Under the pieces are notes generated by a model. That model had not been told where the DNA came from, ran no database searches, and saw nothing but the letters and a program-made list of their open reading frames with translations. Positions 3,300 to 59,711 of a DNA stretch of 64,000 nt are shown piece after piece; the first letter of the stretch is position 1; each line of letters begins with the position of its first letter. Both the position numbers and the translations under genes were made by a program. Origin of the DNA: Escherichia phage T5. The stretch lies in sequence record AY692264.1; one strand, written 5' to 3'.

Positions 3300-3938
3300 T
3301 TACTCTACTTCAATGAAGGTAGAGGCATTAGACTCGGACAGAACAAAGTCAACATTTGTTGCAAAGTCCTGGTATTCCTCGTCATGCTGTTTAATCAGCT
3401 TCTCCAGTCCCAGCGGATCAATCAAGAATGGAGTATTCTTGAGTTCCAACAGGTTGAGCTGCATTTTAACTTCATCTTCGGAAGTTTTCTTATCGCGGGT
3501 AGCCATGCTATCCTGCAAACGCTCATATTTAGCATCAAACTGTGCTTTCTGCGTATTAAACTTAACCGTAGCGGCATGGAACTGCTTACGCATATTAGCC
3601 AGCAACTGAGCTTTAAGCTCCATAGAACGCTTAGCTTCAATTGCTTCTGCAACAGTCATTTTACGAGAACCGATCTCAACGATCGTTTCTGCGTTGCTCT
3701 TAATCAGAGCAGCTTTGATACGATCACGCTGGGACATCATATCCAGCAGAGACTGGAAATCAGTCTTAATACGAGTAGACAGGGCATCTACTTCGATTGC
3801 GGCGCCAACTACAACCTGGTTTTTATCCTTACCTTCACCAACAGCGATCAGAAGCTGTTGTTCAGTAGCTTTACGGATTTTAGCTTCCAGAGATTTGATG
3901 GTTGCCAGAGCACGAGTTTTAGAAATACGAGTGGTCAT
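3300..3938 (-). CDS. hypothetical protein (212 aa, coiled-coil-like)
   Basis: ORF with AAGGAAG RBS; preferred over the antisense 3159..3956 ORF. Confidence 0.55.
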   Translation of the reverse strand: MTTRISKTRALATIKSLEAKIRKATEQQLLIAVGEGKDKNQVVVGAAIEVDALSTRIKTDFQSLLDMMSQRDRIKAALIKSNAETIVEIGSRKMTVAEAIEAKRSMELKAQLLANMRKQFHAATVKFNTQKAQFDAKYERLQDSMATRDKKTSEDEVKMQLNLLELKNTPFLIDPLGLEKLIKQHDEEYQDFATNVDFVLSESNASTFIEVE

Positions 3939-3990
3939 TGTTTCTTCCTTATATGAAGTTTAAGATTTGAATTTGTTTAAAGTTGGTCTA

Positions 3991-4173
3991 TTACAGACCA
4001 ATTGCCAGTAGGGTACGCAGAACAGTATCTTTACTGTTATCAATTTTAGGATTAGCACGATTTAGCAGATCAAAGATTTTCTGGACACCTGATTGACGTT
4101 CAGCCATACGACGGATACCCAGATTACGAGTAGCTTTCTTACCATTTTTACGAACATTTTTAGATACTGGCAT
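3991..4173 (-). CDS. small basic protein (60 aa)
   Basis: Lys/Arg-rich ORF; conserved leader AAAAGGAAAACAAAT before ATG; promoter upstream. Confidence 0.5.
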   Translation of the reverse strand: MPVSKNVRKNGKKATRNLGIRRMAERQSGVQKIFDLLNRANPKIDNSKDTVLRTLLAIGL

Positions 4174-15629: not shown

Positions 15630-15637
15630 GCTAATCA

Positions 15638-15670
15638 GCCAGGTTGCTAGTCGACCTGGCTTTTATTTTA
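15638..15670 (+). terminator. rho-independent terminator after nrdD
   Basis: Hairpin GCCAGGT-N9-ACCTGGC followed by TTTTATTTTATTT. Confidence 0.7.
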
Positions 15671-16390: not shown

Positions 16391-17209
16391 ATGCGTAGGC
16401 TAATTATTATTAGTGGTGCAGGTTTGAGTGTTGAAAGTGGTGTACGAGCCTTCCGTACGGATACTGCTAGTGGTAAAGCATTGTGGGATGATTATGATCT
16501 AGAAGAGGTATGTAATATTCATGCCTTTCGTGGTAACTTTTATCATAAAACCCATATGTTTTACAACAAGCGACGTGAAGAGCTAAAAACTGTTGAACCT
16601 AATCTTGCGCATCTTCGTATTGGTGAATGGTATAAGAAATATCCGGGTCAAGTAGTAAATTTGACTACTAACGTTGATGACCTTATTGAGCGTGCTGGTG
16701 TTCCGCATAGTGACATTCTGCATATTCATGGGTATTTAAAAGAGGTTGTTGTAGCTGACAGCTACAATAGTAGCAATAAACGAGTTATTGATGTAGGGTA
16801 CAATTCTATTGACCCAGATGATTATAAATGGGTTAAACCTAATGTAATCTTCTTTGGTGAGCATGCTCCAGCGTACACAGAAATGTATAATATTTTTGAT
16901 GGTATTACCAGTCAAGATATGATCGTTGTAGTTGGTTGCTCTAACCAAGTAATTAACTTCTACTGGGAATTATTCCCTATTCTTAACCGTACTGCTGCGA
17001 AACTTATGGTAGTTAACTACTATGATAGTGCCCTAGCATCGAAACCAGGCTATCAAGGTATGACTCGTAGTGATATGTACCAACTGGAAGATCGTGGTAT
17101 TCCTTACTGGAGTAAAGGTGCGGTAGATGCTTTCAGTGATCCTGGTTTTATTGCTCGTGTAGAAGCTCATCTAGAGGGTAGACCTTATGTGTCAGGAAGT
17201 AAGAAATAA
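16391..17209 (+). CDS. Sir2-family (sirtuin-like) NAD-dependent protein
   Basis: GAGLSVESGVRAFR matches the sirtuin Rossmann motif GAGxSxxSGIPxFR; TTNVDDL matches the NAD-binding TQNIDxL motif. Confidence 0.75.
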   Translation: MRRLIIISGAGLSVESGVRAFRTDTASGKALWDDYDLEEVCNIHAFRGNFYHKTHMFYNKRREELKTVEPNLAHLRIGEWYKKYPGQVVNLTTNVDDLIERAGVPHSDILHIHGYLKEVVVADSYNSSNKRVIDVGYNSIDPDDYKWVKPNVIFFGEHAPAYTEMYNIFDGITSQDMIVVVGCSNQVINFYWELFPILNRTAAKLMVVNYYDSALASKPGYQGMTRSDMYQLEDRGIPYWSKGAVDAFSDPGFIARVEAHLEGRPYVSGSKK

Positions 17210-17372
17210 TGAATGGGATATTTTCATAACTGAGTCTGGCACTTGGTGCTATAGATTTGCCTATAGGTTTCCTAGTGTAAGAAAACGGCTGGGATACACA
17301 TATAAAATTATCTACACTACAGATAATATATGGTTATCCTCTGGAGATGAGGGGAAACAGATATGTCCATAG
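17187..17372 (+). CDS. small Cys-containing protein (61 aa), paralog of next ORF
   Basis: GAGGGT RBS; shares DIF..G.WCYR motif with 17363..17545. Confidence 0.4.
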   Translation: MCQEVRNNEWDIFITESGTWCYRFAYRFPSVRKRLGYTYKIIYTTDNIWLSSGDEGKQICP

Positions 17373-17545
17373 TTAAATCTGTGTATACACATCCCGATGA
17401 TATATTTGTATGGGCGGATGGTAGTTGGTGCTATCGATGTGAGCTATGGGAAATGGACTATAAATCCGATGACTATGGTGTCATATATGTTGATACAGTT
17501 GAGTATGATACGTTCTTAGAAAGGGACAAAAATGGAAATAAGTAA
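17363..17545 (+). CDS. small Cys-containing protein (60 aa), paralog of previous ORF
   Basis: GAGGGGAAA RBS; DIFVWADGSWCYR motif. Confidence 0.45.
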   Translation: MSIVKSVYTHPDDIFVWADGSWCYRCELWEMDYKSDDYGVIYVDTVEYDTFLERDKNGNK

Positions 17546-18038
17546 TACTCCAATTATTTTTCTAGACATTGATGGGGTGCTCAATTCGAGCATCTCCCAC
17601 CATCATGCACCTGATGATGAAAAGATTTTCTTTGGAAGTGACTGGGTTTTTAAACCGCTTCTCAAGGCTTTTCAGGACTTTATTCGTCCTTCTCCAATAA
17701 TGATTGTTGGGGTATCTTCATGGTTCTCTGTCAGGAATGAGATGGAGAACGTTCAGATTATGACCGGGTTAGGTCTTATAGACCGTTTTCTTGGTACAAC
17801 GGATTTTACTGGTGGTGGGCTATCTAGGGGTAATTCTGTTCTTCGCTTCGTTGAAAAGCATAAGCTCAAACATTGGTGTGTGCTGGATGATGCTGGTGCT
17901 ATGATGTATCAGTATCCAACGGTTATAGTCAATGGTAGAACTGGAATAAATCTTCAAGATTTAAGAGCTGTTAGCTATATGTTAGAATTTAGTCCAGATC
18001 TTGAAATGTGTAAAGCCCTACAACAATTTAAGGTGTAA
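17532..18038 (+). CDS. HAD-like phosphatase/phosphoesterase
   Basis: N-terminal HAD motif I FLDIDGVLN; AAGGGA RBS. Confidence 0.5.
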   Translation: MEISNTPIIFLDIDGVLNSSISHHHAPDDEKIFFGSDWVFKPLLKAFQDFIRPSPIMIVGVSSWFSVRNEMENVQIMTGLGLIDRFLGTTDFTGGGLSRGNSVLRFVEKHKLKHWCVLDDAGAMMYQYPTVIVNGRTGINLQDLRAVSYMLEFSPDLEMCKALQQFKV

Positions 18039-18040
18039 AT

Positions 18041-18469
18041 ATGTTTAATAATGTATTCTCTAAAGAAGCTAATCCAATATTGGTTAATTTTTGGCGTACT
18101 CTTCCAGCCAACCTGTACAATGAGGCTATTAATGCTCTAAAAATATGGTGTGAGAATAATGAAATCTCCTTTGCTTTTAAAGGCGAGATTGAAGAAGCTC
18201 CCTGTATTGGTTTAATTGTGCAGGTAGAGGATGGTCTTGAAGAGATTGTCGGCTGGAAAGAGTTAGATGAAATGGGCTTGGTTTTTGCATTAAACTATAA
18301 GCTGTTTATGCCTAATAAACACCGTATTGTTGTTAACTATAAAACCAGTGAATCTCCTGGCTTTCAAGTTAATGAACATTACGGTTGGTCTTACTCACCG
18401 GAAGAAGTAAATGATGGTATCCAAAAACTTCGTCGTTTTGGTTATCAAATTCCGGGTTTAACTGCCTAA
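18041..18469 (+). CDS. hypothetical protein (142 aa), tandem paralog A
   Basis: AAGGTG RBS; shares PCIG..GW.EL...GL..ALN..LF and C-terminal Y.PGL with 18479..18871. Confidence 0.55.
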   Translation: MFNNVFSKEANPILVNFWRTLPANLYNEAINALKIWCENNEISFAFKGEIEEAPCIGLIVQVEDGLEEIVGWKELDEMGLVFALNYKLFMPNKHRIVVNYKTSESPGFQVNEHYGWSYSPEEVNDGIQKLRRFGYQIPGLTA

Positions 18470-18478
18470 GGAGGCACA

Positions 18479-18871
18479 ATGGAACAAATATATTGGCGTC
18501 AGATTGATCCTAGTTTGGTGAAGTGTGCAGAGAAGCTGCTACAACGTTGGTTGGGGGTAAGACAAGCCTCCTTCACTTTTCCGGAGCAGCAAATAGACGA
18601 TCCCTGTATTGGTGTTTTCCTATCAGGCTACGCTGGGGAATGGGAATTGGATTGGAATGAATTGTCTGCTATGGGTTTAATTGTTGCACTAAATTTCTCT
18701 TTGTTCCATCCACGTGGTTTGGCTATATGTCGTGTGCCTGATGATGGTTGTTCGCCCCATCTTTTACGGGTGGAAGATGATATTTGGGAGTACACTCCAG
18801 ATACTCTCAAAGAAGCTAAAGAACAGTTAAACCGTGTTGGGATCTATGTTCCAGGCCTGAATGATGAATGA
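18479..18871 (+). CDS. hypothetical protein (130 aa), tandem paralog B
   Basis: AAGGAGG RBS; paralogous to 18041..18469. Confidence 0.55.
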   Translation: MEQIYWRQIDPSLVKCAEKLLQRWLGVRQASFTFPEQQIDDPCIGVFLSGYAGEWELDWNELSAMGLIVALNFSLFHPRGLAICRVPDDGCSPHLLRVEDDIWEYTPDTLKEAKEQLNRVGIYVPGLNDE

Positions 18872-18962
18872 TTTTTATTAGCTGAACTCTGATTACCGAG
18901 TCATTTTGGCTCGGTTTTCTCTGTACTCAAAGACACTGATAGCACCATCCGGAAAATTTTAC

Positions 18963-18991
18963 TTGCAGGATGCCCAAAATCTTGATATAAT
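18963..18991 (+). promoter_or_regulatory. sigma70-type promoter with ~490-nt leader
   Basis: TTGCAG-17-TATAAT; next start codon is at 19489. Confidence 0.5.
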
Positions 18992-19488
18992 ATTTATATT
19001 GAATTGAGAGACATTAGTAAAAATTGATTTTGCTAATTTTTCTTGTTTACAATCCGCGATACGGAACAGTTAGGCTGCCCCATTAAGGGTTGTTTTAACT
19101 GTTACTAGTGTTTATATTGCATTAGTTAATATTCAATTAAGTGATCTGTGTACCCTGAATTCGGAAAGGTAAATCCAAACCGTGCATATTTAGCTCGTTA
19201 TATAGGCAGAGTTTTATATGGGGGTGCGAACGAAAAGAGCAGCGAATGGCGGCACGTACAGTAGTCACCTACCAATAGGATAGTGAGGACAAATAGAATC
19301 GGCTTAGCGGCCAATGACCTAGGTTCTATTCTGTATATGAGCGAAGAGAGCACAGCACTGAGATATGATAACTTATTCATATTGTTTGATGATAATTGAT
19401 GTTTACGTAAATAGTAGTAATAGTTGTTCTATTCTTTCTGAATAGTCCTAAAGAAAAGATTTCGATTAACCAACACAGGAGTATTGTT

Positions 19489-22275
19489 GTGTTTTCTATC
19501 CTCCAAGGTCACGCCGGATTTTCTCGTGATTTAGCAACAGGTATTTGGCGAGAAATCAAAGCGGAAGATTATACCTTTGCCAAGCGATTCTCGAAAGAGC
19601 ATCCAGAAGGTAAACCAGCTTCTATGCCCTTCAAATTTGATGTAATAGAAGAGCACGACCCACAAAGCCTTGCCGAAATGTTACCCCTCATGAGACGTTT
19701 AACGTCTGACCCTCATATCGTTGCGGTGCGAGGTCGATGTCTCGCACCTAAAAATAATGTGCGACGTAAGAAAGGTAACTTTAATGTATCTAATCCTAGT
19801 AATATTATTGCTATGGACGTGGATGGTATCCTAGATACCGGTGGGTATGACAAATTTAATCTTGTTGGTATGGCCCGCCACATTATTAAGATGTTGAATA
19901 GTATTAGTGAGGATATGTTTCCTCTTGATGCAGGGTTTATTGCTCATGCATCGTCTTCGGCTGGGCTAAAACCAGGTATCCGAATGCACTTAATGCTAGA
20001 ATCTAACGTCAAGGTAACTCAGGGTCAGCTAAAGTTCTTATTTACATCTATCAACGATAGTAGTAAGCAAAAATTTGGTTTTGATATTGCCGACCTAGCT
20101 TATTATTCATCTGTCCAGCTCCACTATTTTGCCGACCCCTTATTTAGCGATGGTATTGTTGATCCGTTTAAAGCGGAGAGTAAGCCACGTCTGGTGTATG
20201 TTAAAGGTTCGAAAGTAAATTTGCCCAATAATCTGGTTGACTATGAAACAACTAGAGGGGAGTTTAAGGAAGGGTTTTATTCTTTACTTGATCAAATTAA
20301 AGGCAAAAAGATTGCTTCTGATAAAGTAGAAGAAACCATCAGCGAGTTAGAAGAGGCTGATGATGGAGTGTATTTGCGTATTATCCCCAAACTATACCAT
20401 AGAGCATTAGAGGATGGTGTTGATTTTGCATGGCTAGAACGTGAGATTAAACCAGCTTTATCTGAATATATTGCAACTAAAGATAACAGTCGTAATATTC
20501 AAGATTACTTTAATAACGGTCGTAAGCAGGCTCTCAAAGCGTTTGTTAATAATTCTAAACGTGAGATTCCATTAAATCTGAAAGGTGTTCCACTTAAGAA
20601 ATTAGAAGTGGATTCTCCACCAGAAGTTCCATACCTGAAGATTAACATTGTGCCCCCAAAAGGCCATATAACATTTGTTAAGGCAAGTCTTGGTACTGGT
20701 AAAACTACGGCAGTAACTAAATGGCTGGACGCAGGTGTTCTTCCAGGCAACTTTTTAGCAGTTACAAATACTAGAGCACTGGTATCTTCAAATGCCAAGA
20801 AATTTAGTGCAGGACAATACGATAAGTCTGTAGATATGCTCAACTTTAAACGTGGAGCTATCGATCGTATGTCCACAACTATTCACTCTTTGCATAAGTT
20901 CAAAAGTTTTATTGGGCAAATAGACACCATTTTTATTGATGAATGTGACGCTGTAATGAATGACCTATTATTCGCCCCTGTTGTTAAACAACGTCGCGAG
21001 TGTATTCAAGTTCTACGTGACATCCTTATGACAGCTAAGACTGTAATCTTATCCGATGGTGATATTAGTGCTGAGACGATTGAAGCATATGGTTCTCTAA
21101 TTGATTTTGATAAACCAGTAGCATTTTATAATCATCACCGTAAAATGCTGTCAAAAGCACACGCTTATGAGTTTCCTGATGAATCCAGTATTTGGGTTGC
21201 ACTTCAGACTTCTCTAGAGATGGGTGAGAAATCTATTCTAGTATCTGATTGTGGCCCGGATGAGCTGAATGAGAAGGGTATGGCACTGCGTCGTAATACG
21301 GGTGCGTTAGTTAAGGAAATCCATTCAAACTCCACCTCAGATGTGGATATTCGACGTATTCTGGATTATACAACTAATGAGCTAATTGATCAACAAATTG
21401 ATTGCTTATTATGTAGTCCATCCGTAACGAGTGGCGTTGACTTTAACTATTTCGATAATGTGTTTGTTATTACTAGAACCAGTAATCAAGCGCCAAACAT
21501 GCGTTTCCAAGCAATCAGGCGCGACCGTGGTGCCCAGAACATCTATTATTTTATTGATAAATCTACGAGTGGATTCTCTGCAGGTTCTGAGCAATATAAT
21601 ATTGATGAAGGTTGGCTGGAGTTAGCACAGCAATTATACGCACGTCGTAGAGAGCTGGAATCTAGAAACTATACTAGTACCTTACGTTATTATTTGCTTG
21701 ATCAGGGTGCAACTATTGATATTTTCAGCGAAAGCTGGGGAACTATTGAAGGTGCTGGTAAAGAATATACAGAAGAGCGAATCAAAGCTATTCTGCATTC
21801 AACTCCAGATTATTGTGCCCCACGTCATGCAGATGCATATGAAGCTAAACTACTTCTTGTTCGCTATTATCATCTTGAGTCTATTAAAGATGTAACAGTT
21901 GAGCATGTCGAACAATATATCAAAGATAAACCGAATGATCGAGCTGCATTCTTCCATAAGATGCACGAGATGTTCTGGGAAGATATTAAGAAGTGTTCAA
22001 ATGTGACCATTAAACCATTCATAGAGGCTCTGAAAGGTAAGAAGAAAGACTTCTTCCTTAAAACAGGTCAGAGTGCCAACCCAAAATATGCTAGAATGTA
22101 TCTTGGTATGATGGGTATTGGTAAGGATATGAACACTGAAAATATTGTAGACTGGTACAGAACCTATTGTAAAATCGAGTGTATGCCAATTCCTTTCAAA
22201 TTCATGACAGAGGAAGAGAGGGCTATGGCAGAAGAAGTAATGTCCGAACTTGGAGCAACTAATGAAGATGCATAA
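19489..22275 (+). CDS. UL9-like SF2 helicase / putative replication origin-binding protein
   Basis: 928 aa; GTG start with AGGAG RBS; Walker A SLGTGKTT, motif II IDECD, further SF2 motifs. Confidence 0.65.
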   Translation: MFSILQGHAGFSRDLATGIWREIKAEDYTFAKRFSKEHPEGKPASMPFKFDVIEEHDPQSLAEMLPLMRRLTSDPHIVAVRGRCLAPKNNVRRKKGNFNVSNPSNIIAMDVDGILDTGGYDKFNLVGMARHIIKMLNSISEDMFPLDAGFIAHASSSAGLKPGIRMHLMLESNVKVTQGQLKFLFTSINDSSKQKFGFDIADLAYYSSVQLHYFADPLFSDGIVDPFKAESKPRLVYVKGSKVNLPNNLVDYETTRGEFKEGFYSLLDQIKGKKIASDKVEETISELEEADDGVYLRIIPKLYHRALEDGVDFAWLEREIKPALSEYIATKDNSRNIQDYFNNGRKQALKAFVNNSKREIPLNLKGVPLKKLEVDSPPEVPYLKINIVPPKGHITFVKASLGTGKTTAVTKWLDAGVLPGNFLAVTNTRALVSSNAKKFSAGQYDKSVDMLNFKRGAIDRMSTTIHSLHKFKSFIGQIDTIFIDECDAVMNDLLFAPVVKQRRECIQVLRDILMTAKTVILSDGDISAETIEAYGSLIDFDKPVAFYNHHRKMLSKAHAYEFPDESSIWVALQTSLEMGEKSILVSDCGPDELNEKGMALRRNTGALVKEIHSNSTSDVDIRRILDYTTNELIDQQIDCLLCSPSVTSGVDFNYFDNVFVITRTSNQAPNMRFQAIRRDRGAQNIYYFIDKSTSGFSAGSEQYNIDEGWLELAQQLYARRRELESRNYTSTLRYYLLDQGATIDIFSESWGTIEGAGKEYTEERIKAILHSTPDYCAPRHADAYEAKLLLVRYYHLESIKDVTVEHVEQYIKDKPNDRAAFFHKMHEMFWEDIKKCSNVTIKPFIEALKGKKKDFFLKTGQSANPKYARMYLGMMGIGKDMNTENIVDWYRTYCKIECMPIPFKFMTEEERAMAEEVMSELGATNEDA

Positions 22276-58316: not shown

Positions 58317-59711
58317 TTAACCACCTGCTGTTACAGTAATAACTTTAGTGCCTTTAACACCAGAGCCGTCTTTAGCCGTGGCTTCAACAGTTACCGCACC
58401 GGTTTTACTAGCATCTGCTCTTAGTAACCCTGTTGCATTGATAGTAGCTGCATCACCGGCAGTGATAGCCCAAGTAACTTCCTTATTCCTTGCGGAAGAA
58501 GGAGTAACTTCAACACTCATCTGAAGAGTAGCTGATCGATTTAATGTAGTAACATTTCCAGCAGACTTAACAGTAATTGCGGTTACAGCATCAGTAGCAC
58601 CGTCACCATTAACAATTAGATTATTAATAGTTGTTCTAGTATACTTACTAGAGAAGCCTAAGTAACCTTCGTCACCAGCATCCAGATCTGACGGAATAGC
58701 CTTAAATTCTACTGAAGTACCAAGTACATCATCAGTCTCAATAGTAGGAATATTAACGTGCGCCTGTTTAGCTACTAGAATAGCTGCAGGACGTTCATCA
58801 TCATACTCGCCACCAAGTACTAGGGCGATTTCAAAGCGGTTAACTACCTTCAGAGTTTTGATAAGATCTTTATACAGTTCCATAGAACCAAGAGATTTAT
58901 CATTCAGGTAAGCAGTTAATGAACCAGTTAATTCAAAAGCACCAGTAAAGGAACCAATTGGAATAGTAACACGGGACATTACATTAGGTGTTAGGTAAGT
59001 AATGTTGTTGTTAATAGTAAAAGTACCACCGGTAATTGGTATATCATAAGACTTATTGGTATCCATGTCCTTGATCTTCAAGATCGTTAGTTTGTTTTTA
59101 ATGTAAGAACCCTGGATAGTCATATAAGTTTCATCATCAATACCTATTTGATCTGGATCAAATGGTTGCTCATCCAGTGGGATTAGCTGGTTACCATTAC
59201 CAGACCAAGTTACACGACCAATATCTTCAATATCAACGTTAACTTCTGCCTGATTAATCTGACAGGAATCGATATAACTCCACGTTTTATCAGTCAGAAT
59301 GTAAATATGTAGCATTGCTAACTCATGATAGGAATTATCTTTAAAGTTAACCATGAAGTTAGTAGCATTATTATGTGCTCCAGTAGTTCCTTCAAGATTA
59401 ATAGCTCTACCACTAGAAAGTGCATGCCATAACATATAGTCAGGAACAATTTGTTTGCTAGTATTTTTATCTTTATACGGCAGGATATAAGTAGAGAAAC
59501 TCCACTCAGCTGCGTTTAAAGAGTCGTTAAAACGTTTAGAACCACGAGTTGGACGCGGACCAGCTTCATTAACAGTAATATCTGTTGAGTTACTGTCCTG
59601 ACCCCAAGAAATATCATCCTGAACTAGAATCTCTTGCGTGTTGGTCTTATTATGACCAGTCTTAACCGTAGACACGAAGATTCGAGTATTACGTAATAGT
59701 TGTAAAGACAT
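58317..59711 (-). CDS. major tail tube protein (T5 pb6-like) with C-terminal Ig-like domain
   Basis: 464 aa; C-terminal BIG2-like region (VTVEATAKDGSGVKGTKVITVTAGG). Confidence 0.8.
   Translation of the reverse strand: MSLQLLRNTRIFVSTVKTGHNKTNTQEILVQDDISWGQDSNSTDITVNEAGPRPTRGSKRFNDSLNAAEWSFSTYILPYKDKNTSKQIVPDYMLWHALSSGRAINLEGTTGAHNNATNFMVNFKDNSYHELAMLHIYILTDKTWSYIDSCQINQAEVNVDIEDIGRVTWSGNGNQLIPLDEQPFDPDQIGIDDETYMTIQGSYIKNKLTILKIKDMDTNKSYDIPITGGTFTINNNITYLTPNVMSRVTIPIGSFTGAFELTGSLTAYLNDKSLGSMELYKDLIKTLKVVNRFEIALVLGGEYDDERPAAILVAKQAHVNIPTIETDDVLGTSVEFKAIPSDLDAGDEGYLGFSSKYTRTTINNLIVNGDGATDAVTAITVKSAGNVTTLNRSATLQMSVEVTPSSARNKEVTWAITAGDAATINATGLLRADASKTGAVTVEATAKDGSGVKGTKVITVTAGG

Follow-up and report, generated by a model that had tools for sequence, protein, structure and literature searches.

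An ancient pair of tandem DUF7415 paralogues at the end of an early operon of bacteriophage T5

Introduction

The Pfam family DUF7415 (PF24187) and the protein cluster PHROG 2502 consist of uncharacterised phage and prophage proteins. Most DUF7415 members are stand-alone, single-domain proteins of about 75 aa. A similarity of one T5 gene product, T5.106, to an 'ORF91' was already noted in the original T5 annotation. Phage P2 orf91 is a 150-aa ORF situated directly downstream of replication gene A, and its C-terminal part is a DUF7415 core (HMM E=4e-28). The stretch just after gene A probably borders the variable tin/old region of P2. In phage 186, no DUF7415 member was found, and a literature search on P2 orf91 yielded no functional information. 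The P2 and T5 arrangements are alike in that the P2 gene ends an early operon beside the replication initiator, as T5.106 and its neighbour T5.107 do beside the gene for the origin-binding protein. They differ in that P2 has a single core at the end of a 150-aa ORF, whereas both T5 proteins are two-part.

In the T5 records AY543070 and NC_005859, T5.106 and T5.107 are annotated as conserved hypothetical proteins and nothing more. A literature search on DUF7415, T5.105, T5.106 and T5.107 returned nothing at the level of main texts; the only mention was in the supplement of the CRISPRi-ART study (PMC11879866), a transcriptome-wide knock-down screen that included T5. There, T5.107 was among only 17 T5 genes scored as 'Fit' (score -2.90, p=0.0215) and was described in the supplementary discussion as being of entirely unknown function, while T5.106 (p=0.167) and T5.105 were 'Not Fit' (PMC11879866). 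The 'Fit' call for T5.107 is marginal, and its guide window (58522-58552) overlaps the final codons of T5.106. Sensitivity of the screen in T5 was low, since the obviously important T5.108 was also 'Not Fit' (PMC11879866). The main text of the Qimron toxicity paper gives T5.008, T5.011 and T5.015 as the only toxic T5 genes and does not include T5.106 or T5.107; the HIDEN-SEQ preprint covers no T5-like phage.

Here, the T5.106-T5.107 pair is described with respect to its operon, family, age, selection, predicted structure and the genomic context of its relatives.

Materials and methods

The window was a stretch of 64,000 nucleotides of Escherichia phage T5 (AY692264.1). Window coordinates equal those of AY543070 (NC_005859) minus 40056, as established by megablast with 100% identity for window positions 17500-19500.

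Gene order was examined in T5 and 28 further T5-like loci, the latter comprising 27 IMG/VR loci and phage BF23. Ratios of dN/dS were estimated according to Nei and Gojobori from 29 T5-like loci with 28-29 distinct alleles per gene, and are given as gene-wide medians. Conservation of the core was scored over 21 near-invariant columns derived from 36 single-domain members (W, N, S, GL, IN, EI, HP, GLA, R, G-x-S, DG, W, Y), to which the T5 proteins were aligned using hmmalign. For detection of fusion partners, 50 longer single-domain DUF7415 homologues were scanned with Pfam.

Results

The gene pair and its operon

Two adjacent ORFs of 142 and 130 aa, each with a strong ribosome-binding site, had been described in a reading of the sequence alone. 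The ORFs were confirmed exactly, and both have a good Shine-Dalgarno sequence (Table 1). They correspond to T5.106 and T5.107, the final two genes of a co-directional early block consisting of T5.100, T5.101, T5.102, T5.103, T5.104, T5.105, T5.106 and T5.107, in that order. This unit begins past the nrdD terminator and is ended by a strong rho-independent terminator downstream of T5.107. The T5.107 Shine-Dalgarno sequence and the T5.106 stop codon overlap. Further upstream, the T5.105 stop codon abuts the T5.106 Shine-Dalgarno sequence, which suggests translational coupling of T5.105 and T5.106. T5.106 and T5.107 are real genes, expressed within the early operon.

The non-coding gap between T5.107 and T5.108 is long by T5 standards. 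It holds the operon terminator, an annotated promoter and a further promoter-like site.

Table 1. Coordinates of the T5.106-T5.107 pair, its domains, signals and neighbours (window positions unless stated otherwise).
Feature	Position	Strand	Description	Basis
nrdD terminator	15637-15661			
T5.102, Sir2-like protein	16391-17209	+		Pfam E=1e-24
T5.103	17187-17372		61 aa	
T5.104	17363-17545		60 aa	
T5.105, HAD-type phosphatase	17532-18038	+	directly upstream of T5.106, same operon	Pfam HAD_SAK_2 E=4e-20
T5.106 Shine-Dalgarno	18030-18035	+	AAGGTG, 5 nt before ATG	read from sequence
T5.105 stop codon	18036-18038			
T5.106 CDS	18041-18469	+	142 aa, pI 4.8, net charge -7	ORF
T5.106 degenerate DUF7415 core	18242-18400	+	aa 68-120, EIVGWKEL...WSYSP	hmmalign to 36 single-domain cores
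T5.107 Shine-Dalgarno	18467-18474	+	TAAGGAGG, 4 nt before ATG	read from sequence
T5.107 CDS	18479-18871	+	130 aa, pI 4.5, net charge -10	ORF
T5.107 N-terminal subdomain	18479-18643	+	aa 1-55: short strand, helix 11-25, hairpin 29-33/45-49	AF2, alignment
T5.107 canonical DUF7415 core	18644-18799	+	aa 56-107, ELDWNELS...HPRGLA..R...G.SP...WEYTP	hmmalign
T5.107 C-terminal helix and G-x-x-[IV]-PGL tail	18800-18868	+	helix aa 107-120 (AF2), first residue overlaps core	AF2, alignments
T5.107-T5.108 gap	18872-19488		non-coding, ~617 bp	
Rho-independent terminator	18895-18925 (also given as 18895-18915)	+	9-bp stem then T-run	scan; annotated in AY543070
Annotated promoter	~18943-19017			
Promoter-like site	19024-19053			
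T5.108, replication-origin-binding protein gene	19489-22275		downstream of T5.107 past non-coding gap	
P2 orf91	P2 record 3715-4167 (L059 716-1168)	-	canonical DUF7415 core at C-terminal end	HMM

Similarity of the two proteins

The sequence-only reading had proposed a tandem duplication followed by divergence around a conserved core, to be checked by pairwise alignment. The alignment bears this out: BLASTP gave 32% identity across 124 aa (E=2e-20), and the Smith-Waterman score was 161, compared with 27.8 ± 4.8 (highest 53) for 2000 shuffles (z=27.6). Two of the shared motifs stood as proposed, PCIG(L/V) and W.EL...GL(V/I).ALN..LF being common to both proteins. A G before this W was not shared, as the residue is G in one paralogue and D in the other, and the proposed Y-x-x-PGL ending is absent from one of the two; the motif common to both C termini is G-x-x-[IV]-P-G-L (GYQIPGL vs GIYVPGL).

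Family and domain architecture

Both proteins are members of DUF7415, with 114.2 bits (E=3e-33) for T5.106 and 104.8 bits (E=3e-30) for T5.107 against a gathering score of 27. They match PHROG 2502 end to end (E=2.8e-62 over profile positions 2-134 of 134 and E=2.6e-60 over 4-134 of 134, respectively). NCBIfam and PADLOC searches gave no meaningful match for either.

When 1.84 billion cluster representatives were searched with a profile, 154 matched at E<=1e-3. About 25 of these clusters (at 50% identity) were full-length two-part proteins like the T5 pair, belonging to Demerecviridae wherever the source phage could be traced. Most of the remaining matches cover profile positions 56-110 only; they represent a stand-alone or fused core of ~52 aa, whose signature reads DWNExSxxGLIxRINxEILHPLGLAxxRxPxTGxSxxxLVxDDGxWEY. 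Spurious repeat matches seem to account for a few long proteins in which many stretches matched the C-terminal helix region. When the core profile was used in a word-indexed search, 511 clusters were found at E<=1e-5; the best 120 of these were all 62-95 aa long with DUF7415 as sole domain, and none of these 120 bore a functional name.

Compared with such stand-alone members, the T5 pair adds an N-terminal subdomain and a C-terminal helix with PGL tail. Alignments showed the helix and tail to be common to both paralogues and the full-length family only. The paralogues differ in their cores: T5.107 carries the signature residues (17/21 kept), whereas the core of T5.106 is degenerate (8/21). Orthologues follow the same division, with 16-19/21 (median 17) in the T5.107 type and 8-9/21 in the T5.106 type. 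The paralogues thus diverged asymmetrically, T5.107 being the canonical copy and T5.106 the degenerate one.

Pfam reports two DUF7415 stretches per T5 protein, and each half alone matches the model at E 1e-14 to 1e-18 (E=4e-14 for the C-terminal half of T5.106). A repeat relationship between the halves was not recovered by other means: BLAST between the N and C halves gave no match, hhalign of N-half against C-half profiles gave a probability of 0.6%, and our own HMMs (134 cores; 21 N halves) gave no half-to-half signal beyond shuffled controls. When the N half was modelled by itself with AF2 (pLDDT 85.7), the model matched only its own orthologue in BFVD and none of the single-domain DUF7415 structures. 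The order of predicted secondary structure (strand, helix, hairpin) is alike in both halves. As the internal repeat was not independently confirmed, the architecture is described here as N-terminal subdomain, canonical core and C-terminal helix with PGL tail.

Age of the duplication

Using tblastn, T5.107-like genes were found in 874 phage records; among the matches listed, each record of a T5-like phage had two such places. T4 itself had no detectable homologue, and the Escherichia records were accounted for by T5-like phages. Both genes were adjacent and in the same order in T5 and in 28/28 further T5-like loci examined.

Outside the close relatives of T5, the Klebsiella Sugarlandvirus phiKp_27 has two adjacent paralogues between its Sir2-like and origin-binding protein genes, one of the 106 type (35% identity) and one of the 107 type (38%). 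In Serratia phage Slocum, the equivalent locus contains just one two-part gene, whose product keeps 15/21 of the core signature residues. The start codon of this gene overlaps the Sir2 stop codon. The HAD gene is missing from the equivalent loci of both phages. A neighbour-joining tree and reciprocal bit scores gave a 106-type clade, a 107-type clade and the single-copy type equidistant from both. Given the pair in Sugarlandvirus, the single Slocum copy and the two paralogue clades, the duplication is old, with both copies kept since, and it predates the split between Markadamsvirinae and Sugarlandvirus.

Each of the three Demerecviridae lineages examined has a Sir2-like gene as the direct upstream neighbour of its DUF7415 gene or genes (Slocum, L036 3129-4408; phiKp_27, L005 3620-5381). 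In T5, this syntenic anchor is T5.102. DUF7415 relatives outside Demerecviridae are without such a neighbour. The phage Sir2-like protein and DUF7415 may be functionally linked.

Selection

Median dN/dS was 0.077 for T5.106 and 0.119 for T5.107, in the same range as for the neighbouring genes T5.102 (0.102) and T5.105 (0.067). In sliding windows of 15 codons, pN/pS was <=0.51 throughout. Constraint was weakest over aa ~26-58 of T5.107, its N-terminal hairpin and loop, where relatives of different genera carry indels, and the core helix was nearly invariant (pN/pS 0.02-0.05). These sequence-based ratios indicate purifying selection on both genes.

The duplicates had been supposed to form a family under diversifying selection, such as host-interaction or anti-defence factors. 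This was not supported: the ratios and the top window are low, and the ancient pair is kept in all T5-like loci examined. The fitness effect of T5.107 in a laboratory host (PMC11879866 supplement) likewise speaks against an arms-race family. Of the two outcomes that the same reading had named as contrary to itself, a non-significant alignment was not observed, while the other, that both are invariant housekeeping genes, comes close to what was found, both genes being conserved and under purifying selection. A host-interaction role, if any, would be a conserved one and not of the arms-race type.

Among close relatives of T5, the pairwise distances for T5.106 did not correlate with those for T5.107 (rho 0.08) and gave no sign of co-adaptation, a value that says little on that point because recombination reassorts nearly identical alleles.

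Predicted structure and charge

The T5.107 AF2 model, based on a 19-sequence alignment, had a mean pLDDT of 91.3 and a pTM of 0.85. In a Foldseek search against BFVD, the model matched only DUF7415 proteins, and a profile search of all PDB sequences gave nothing below E=0.78. DUF7415 has no recognisable enzymatic fold. The anti-CRISPR AcrIC4 (PDB 8dfo chain M) scored below any reliable threshold and is without sequence relationship, and it is mentioned as a lead only; the T5 hosts in the fitness screen are without a type I-C CRISPR target. A search for sequence or clear fold homology to characterised anti-defence inhibitors (Acr and related) likewise identified none.

Acidity is a property of the whole family, with a pI of 4.2-4.9 in 19 distant full-length relatives and a median net charge of -4 in 113 single-domain cores, which makes direct nucleic-acid binding unlikely.

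Genomic context of relatives

Among the 50 homologues scanned, the DUF7415 core was fused to dATP/dGTP pyrophosphohydrolase (2), DUF3850/ASCH (2), Phage_Cox, thymidylate kinase, PGDYG, DUF551 and a ClpX zinc finger. A 77-aa member is encoded between nrdD and nrdG in T4-like phages of Klebsiella. The Aeromonas phage Aeh1 has one after rnlA, with a homologue of the T5.105 HAD gene four genes upstream of it.

All 21 bacterial loci retrieved were prophage-like. In nine (Pseudomonas type, phiCTX-like), the gene follows the head-completion gene gpL and precedes the lysis genes, that is, it lies in the late region. In at least nine others, it lies within two genes of the replication initiator gpA. 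Of the members near gpA, one is fused to an Rv2179c-like 3'-5' exonuclease (L042:3419-4306) and one to DUF5405. In P2-like prophages of Aeromonas (L062-L065), the order is gpA, an optional DNA methylase, an ORF of unknown function, DUF7415, another such ORF and DUF3850. A near-identical metagenomic relative of P2 orf91 (P0082) has an N-terminal DUF3850/ASCH domain. Fusion of DUF7415 and DUF3850 in the P2-type ORF versus separate neighbouring genes in Aeromonas constitutes a link of the Rosetta-stone type.

What recurs among these relatives is a location at the end of early operons, beside replication initiators and nucleotide-metabolism genes, the phiCTX-type late region being the exception. 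T5 fits this theme, as the pair sits directly before the gene for the origin-binding protein, a placement also found in other Demerecviridae.

Annotation of the locus and of related records

T5.103 and T5.104 form a second tandem pair of small ORFs upstream, sharing DIF...G.WCYR (BLASTP E=2e-5 over 13 aa). T5.104 is listed under PHROG 5116 and the preceding row, probably T5.103, under the same PHROG; both are 'Not Fit' (PMC11879866 supplement).

T5.105, which bears the motif FLDIDGV, is a HAD-family phosphatase, although RefSeq NC_005859 names it 'Sir2 (NAD-dependent deacetylase)'. This misnaming seems to derive from phrog_18062, the real Sir2-like gene being T5.102.

In GenBank records of T5-like phages, such as T5_ev219, GEC_vB_N5, ESCO40, JLBYU43 and BUCT632, the T5.106 and T5.107 orthologues go by differing names: 'exonuclease', 'Phage exonuclease (ACLAME 70)', 'tail tube protein' or 'tail protein'. 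None of the domain or fold searches supported these labels. An exonuclease identity was rejected, as no nuclease family was matched in Pfam, NCBIfam or fold searches; the label probably spread from fusions such as that of the Rv2179c-like exonuclease with DUF7415. Identity as a tail or tail-tube protein was rejected as well: no such family was matched, and the operon of the two genes, flanked by nrdD and the origin-binding protein gene, is an early one.

Proteins identical or nearly identical to T5.106 are filed under Enterococcus faecalis (P0037, P0047) and Salmonella enterica (P0040), and T5-like genomes are filed under unrelated hosts (MG065642 and MG065692 as 'Campylobacter phage', and others under Listeria). 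The T5-like sequences under Enterococcus, Campylobacter and Listeria most likely represent contamination or mislabelled hosts.

Discussion

The reading that we favour, while giving it slightly less than an even chance as a whole, is that T5.106 and T5.107, the ancient tandem paralogues ending an early operon, have in their DUF7415 core a binding module serving early replication or nucleotide supply. Each protein is small, acidic, soluble and of alpha/beta type, with an N-terminal helix-hairpin subdomain, the ~52-aa core and the C-terminal helix with PGL tail. One ancestral two-part gene, in the state seen in Slocum, was duplicated before Markadamsvirinae and Sugarlandvirus separated. T5.107, having kept the signature that is widespread among single-domain members, would be the canonical and functionally important copy. 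T5.106 has lost more than half of the signature while staying strongly constrained, and is most likely a specialised partner or variant. The two may work jointly as a paralogous heteromer. We infer that the core would be a compact module binding most likely a protein, possibly a nucleotide-like ligand, and that it would be neither an enzyme nor a nucleic-acid binder. The pair would act in the early phase of infection, supporting phage DNA replication or nucleotide supply.

Gene neighbourhood is weak evidence for a replication role, since early genes of phages cluster anyway, and such a role fits poorly with the late-region position, from gpL to the lysis genes, in the phiCTX-like prophages of Pseudomonas. 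A more specific form of the favoured reading, which we consider unlikely at this level of detail, is that DUF7415 is a compact (~52 aa), previously unrecognised module docking on a conserved replication or nucleotide-metabolism factor of host or phage, with active T5.107 and degenerate T5.106 forming an essential-like heteromeric pair. Such a module might, for instance, act as an inhibitor of a nuclease or replication protein of the host, or as a nucleotide sensor.

Conserved inhibitors acting in counter-defence or host takeover are an unlikely alternative that deserves weighing. Here, small acidic proteins would neutralise a conserved host factor, such as a RecBCD-type nuclease or another enzyme directed at DNA ends or replication, and with such a target the T5 proteins would be needed even in laboratory hosts. 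Small size, acidity and early expression agree with this. So do the positions of the domain beside replication initiators of phages with linear or rolling-circle DNA and directly after gene A in P2-like prophages, and purifying selection is possible for inhibitors of invariant host targets. However, neither a PADLOC match nor known anti-defence homology was found, and the low dN/dS is not accompanied by a hypervariable surface.

Alternatively, the core could be a small ligand-sensing or regulatory domain that responds to a nucleotide or signalling molecule and modulates nearby or fused enzymes of nucleotide metabolism, which we regard as quite improbable. For a domain of 55 aa, the density of invariant polar residues (N, S, N, H, R, G-x-S, D) is unusual, and the fusions to dATP/dGTP pyrophosphohydrolase and thymidylate kinase, the nrdD-nrdG position of a relative and the HAD phosphatase and Sir2-like gene of the T5 operon would all suit a sensor. 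Similarity to known nucleotide-binding folds was not found, however, and the further fusions, to Cox, the ClpX zinc finger, DUF551 and DUF5405, accord less well. Moreover, most of the polar signature is gone in T5.106, yet T5.106 is conserved.

A rapidly diversifying host-interaction or anti-defence family, with duplicates exploring different specificities, is largely refuted and has very little probability left: tandem duplicates and the variable, indel-bearing N-terminal hairpin and loop of T5.107 would fit it, but gene-wide dN/dS of 0.08-0.12 with a top window of 0.51, the long retention of both copies and the effect of T5.107 in a laboratory strain (PMC11879866) do not. That the proteins regulate early transcription or replication by binding DNA or RNA is disfavoured and highly improbable, for although the genes adjoin that of the origin-binding protein and relatives are fused to Cox and ASCH, net charges of -7 and -10, the low pI of the family and a search that detected no helix-turn-helix, ribbon-helix-helix or other nucleic-acid-binding fold all speak against it.

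As a sequence finding, the pair is ordinary, and it is already known, since public resources contain both genes, the Pfam and PHROG families to which they belong and the fitness phenotype. New here are the duplication age, the context analysis and the finding that divergence was asymmetric. Most early genes of T5, a classic model phage, are without known function, and T5.107 is among the very few such genes with a measurable fitness effect. The DUF7415 core recurs in hundreds of phage and prophage proteins whose genes lie beside those for replication and nucleotide metabolism. Together, the ancient pair, the purifying selection and the asymmetric divergence narrow the hypotheses and direct experiments to T5.107 and its partner. 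If the more specific reading of DUF7415 as a docking module is true, identification of its target would explain many 'hypothetical' early genes at once, given the hundreds of clusters in T5-, T4- and P2-like as well as lambdoid phages.
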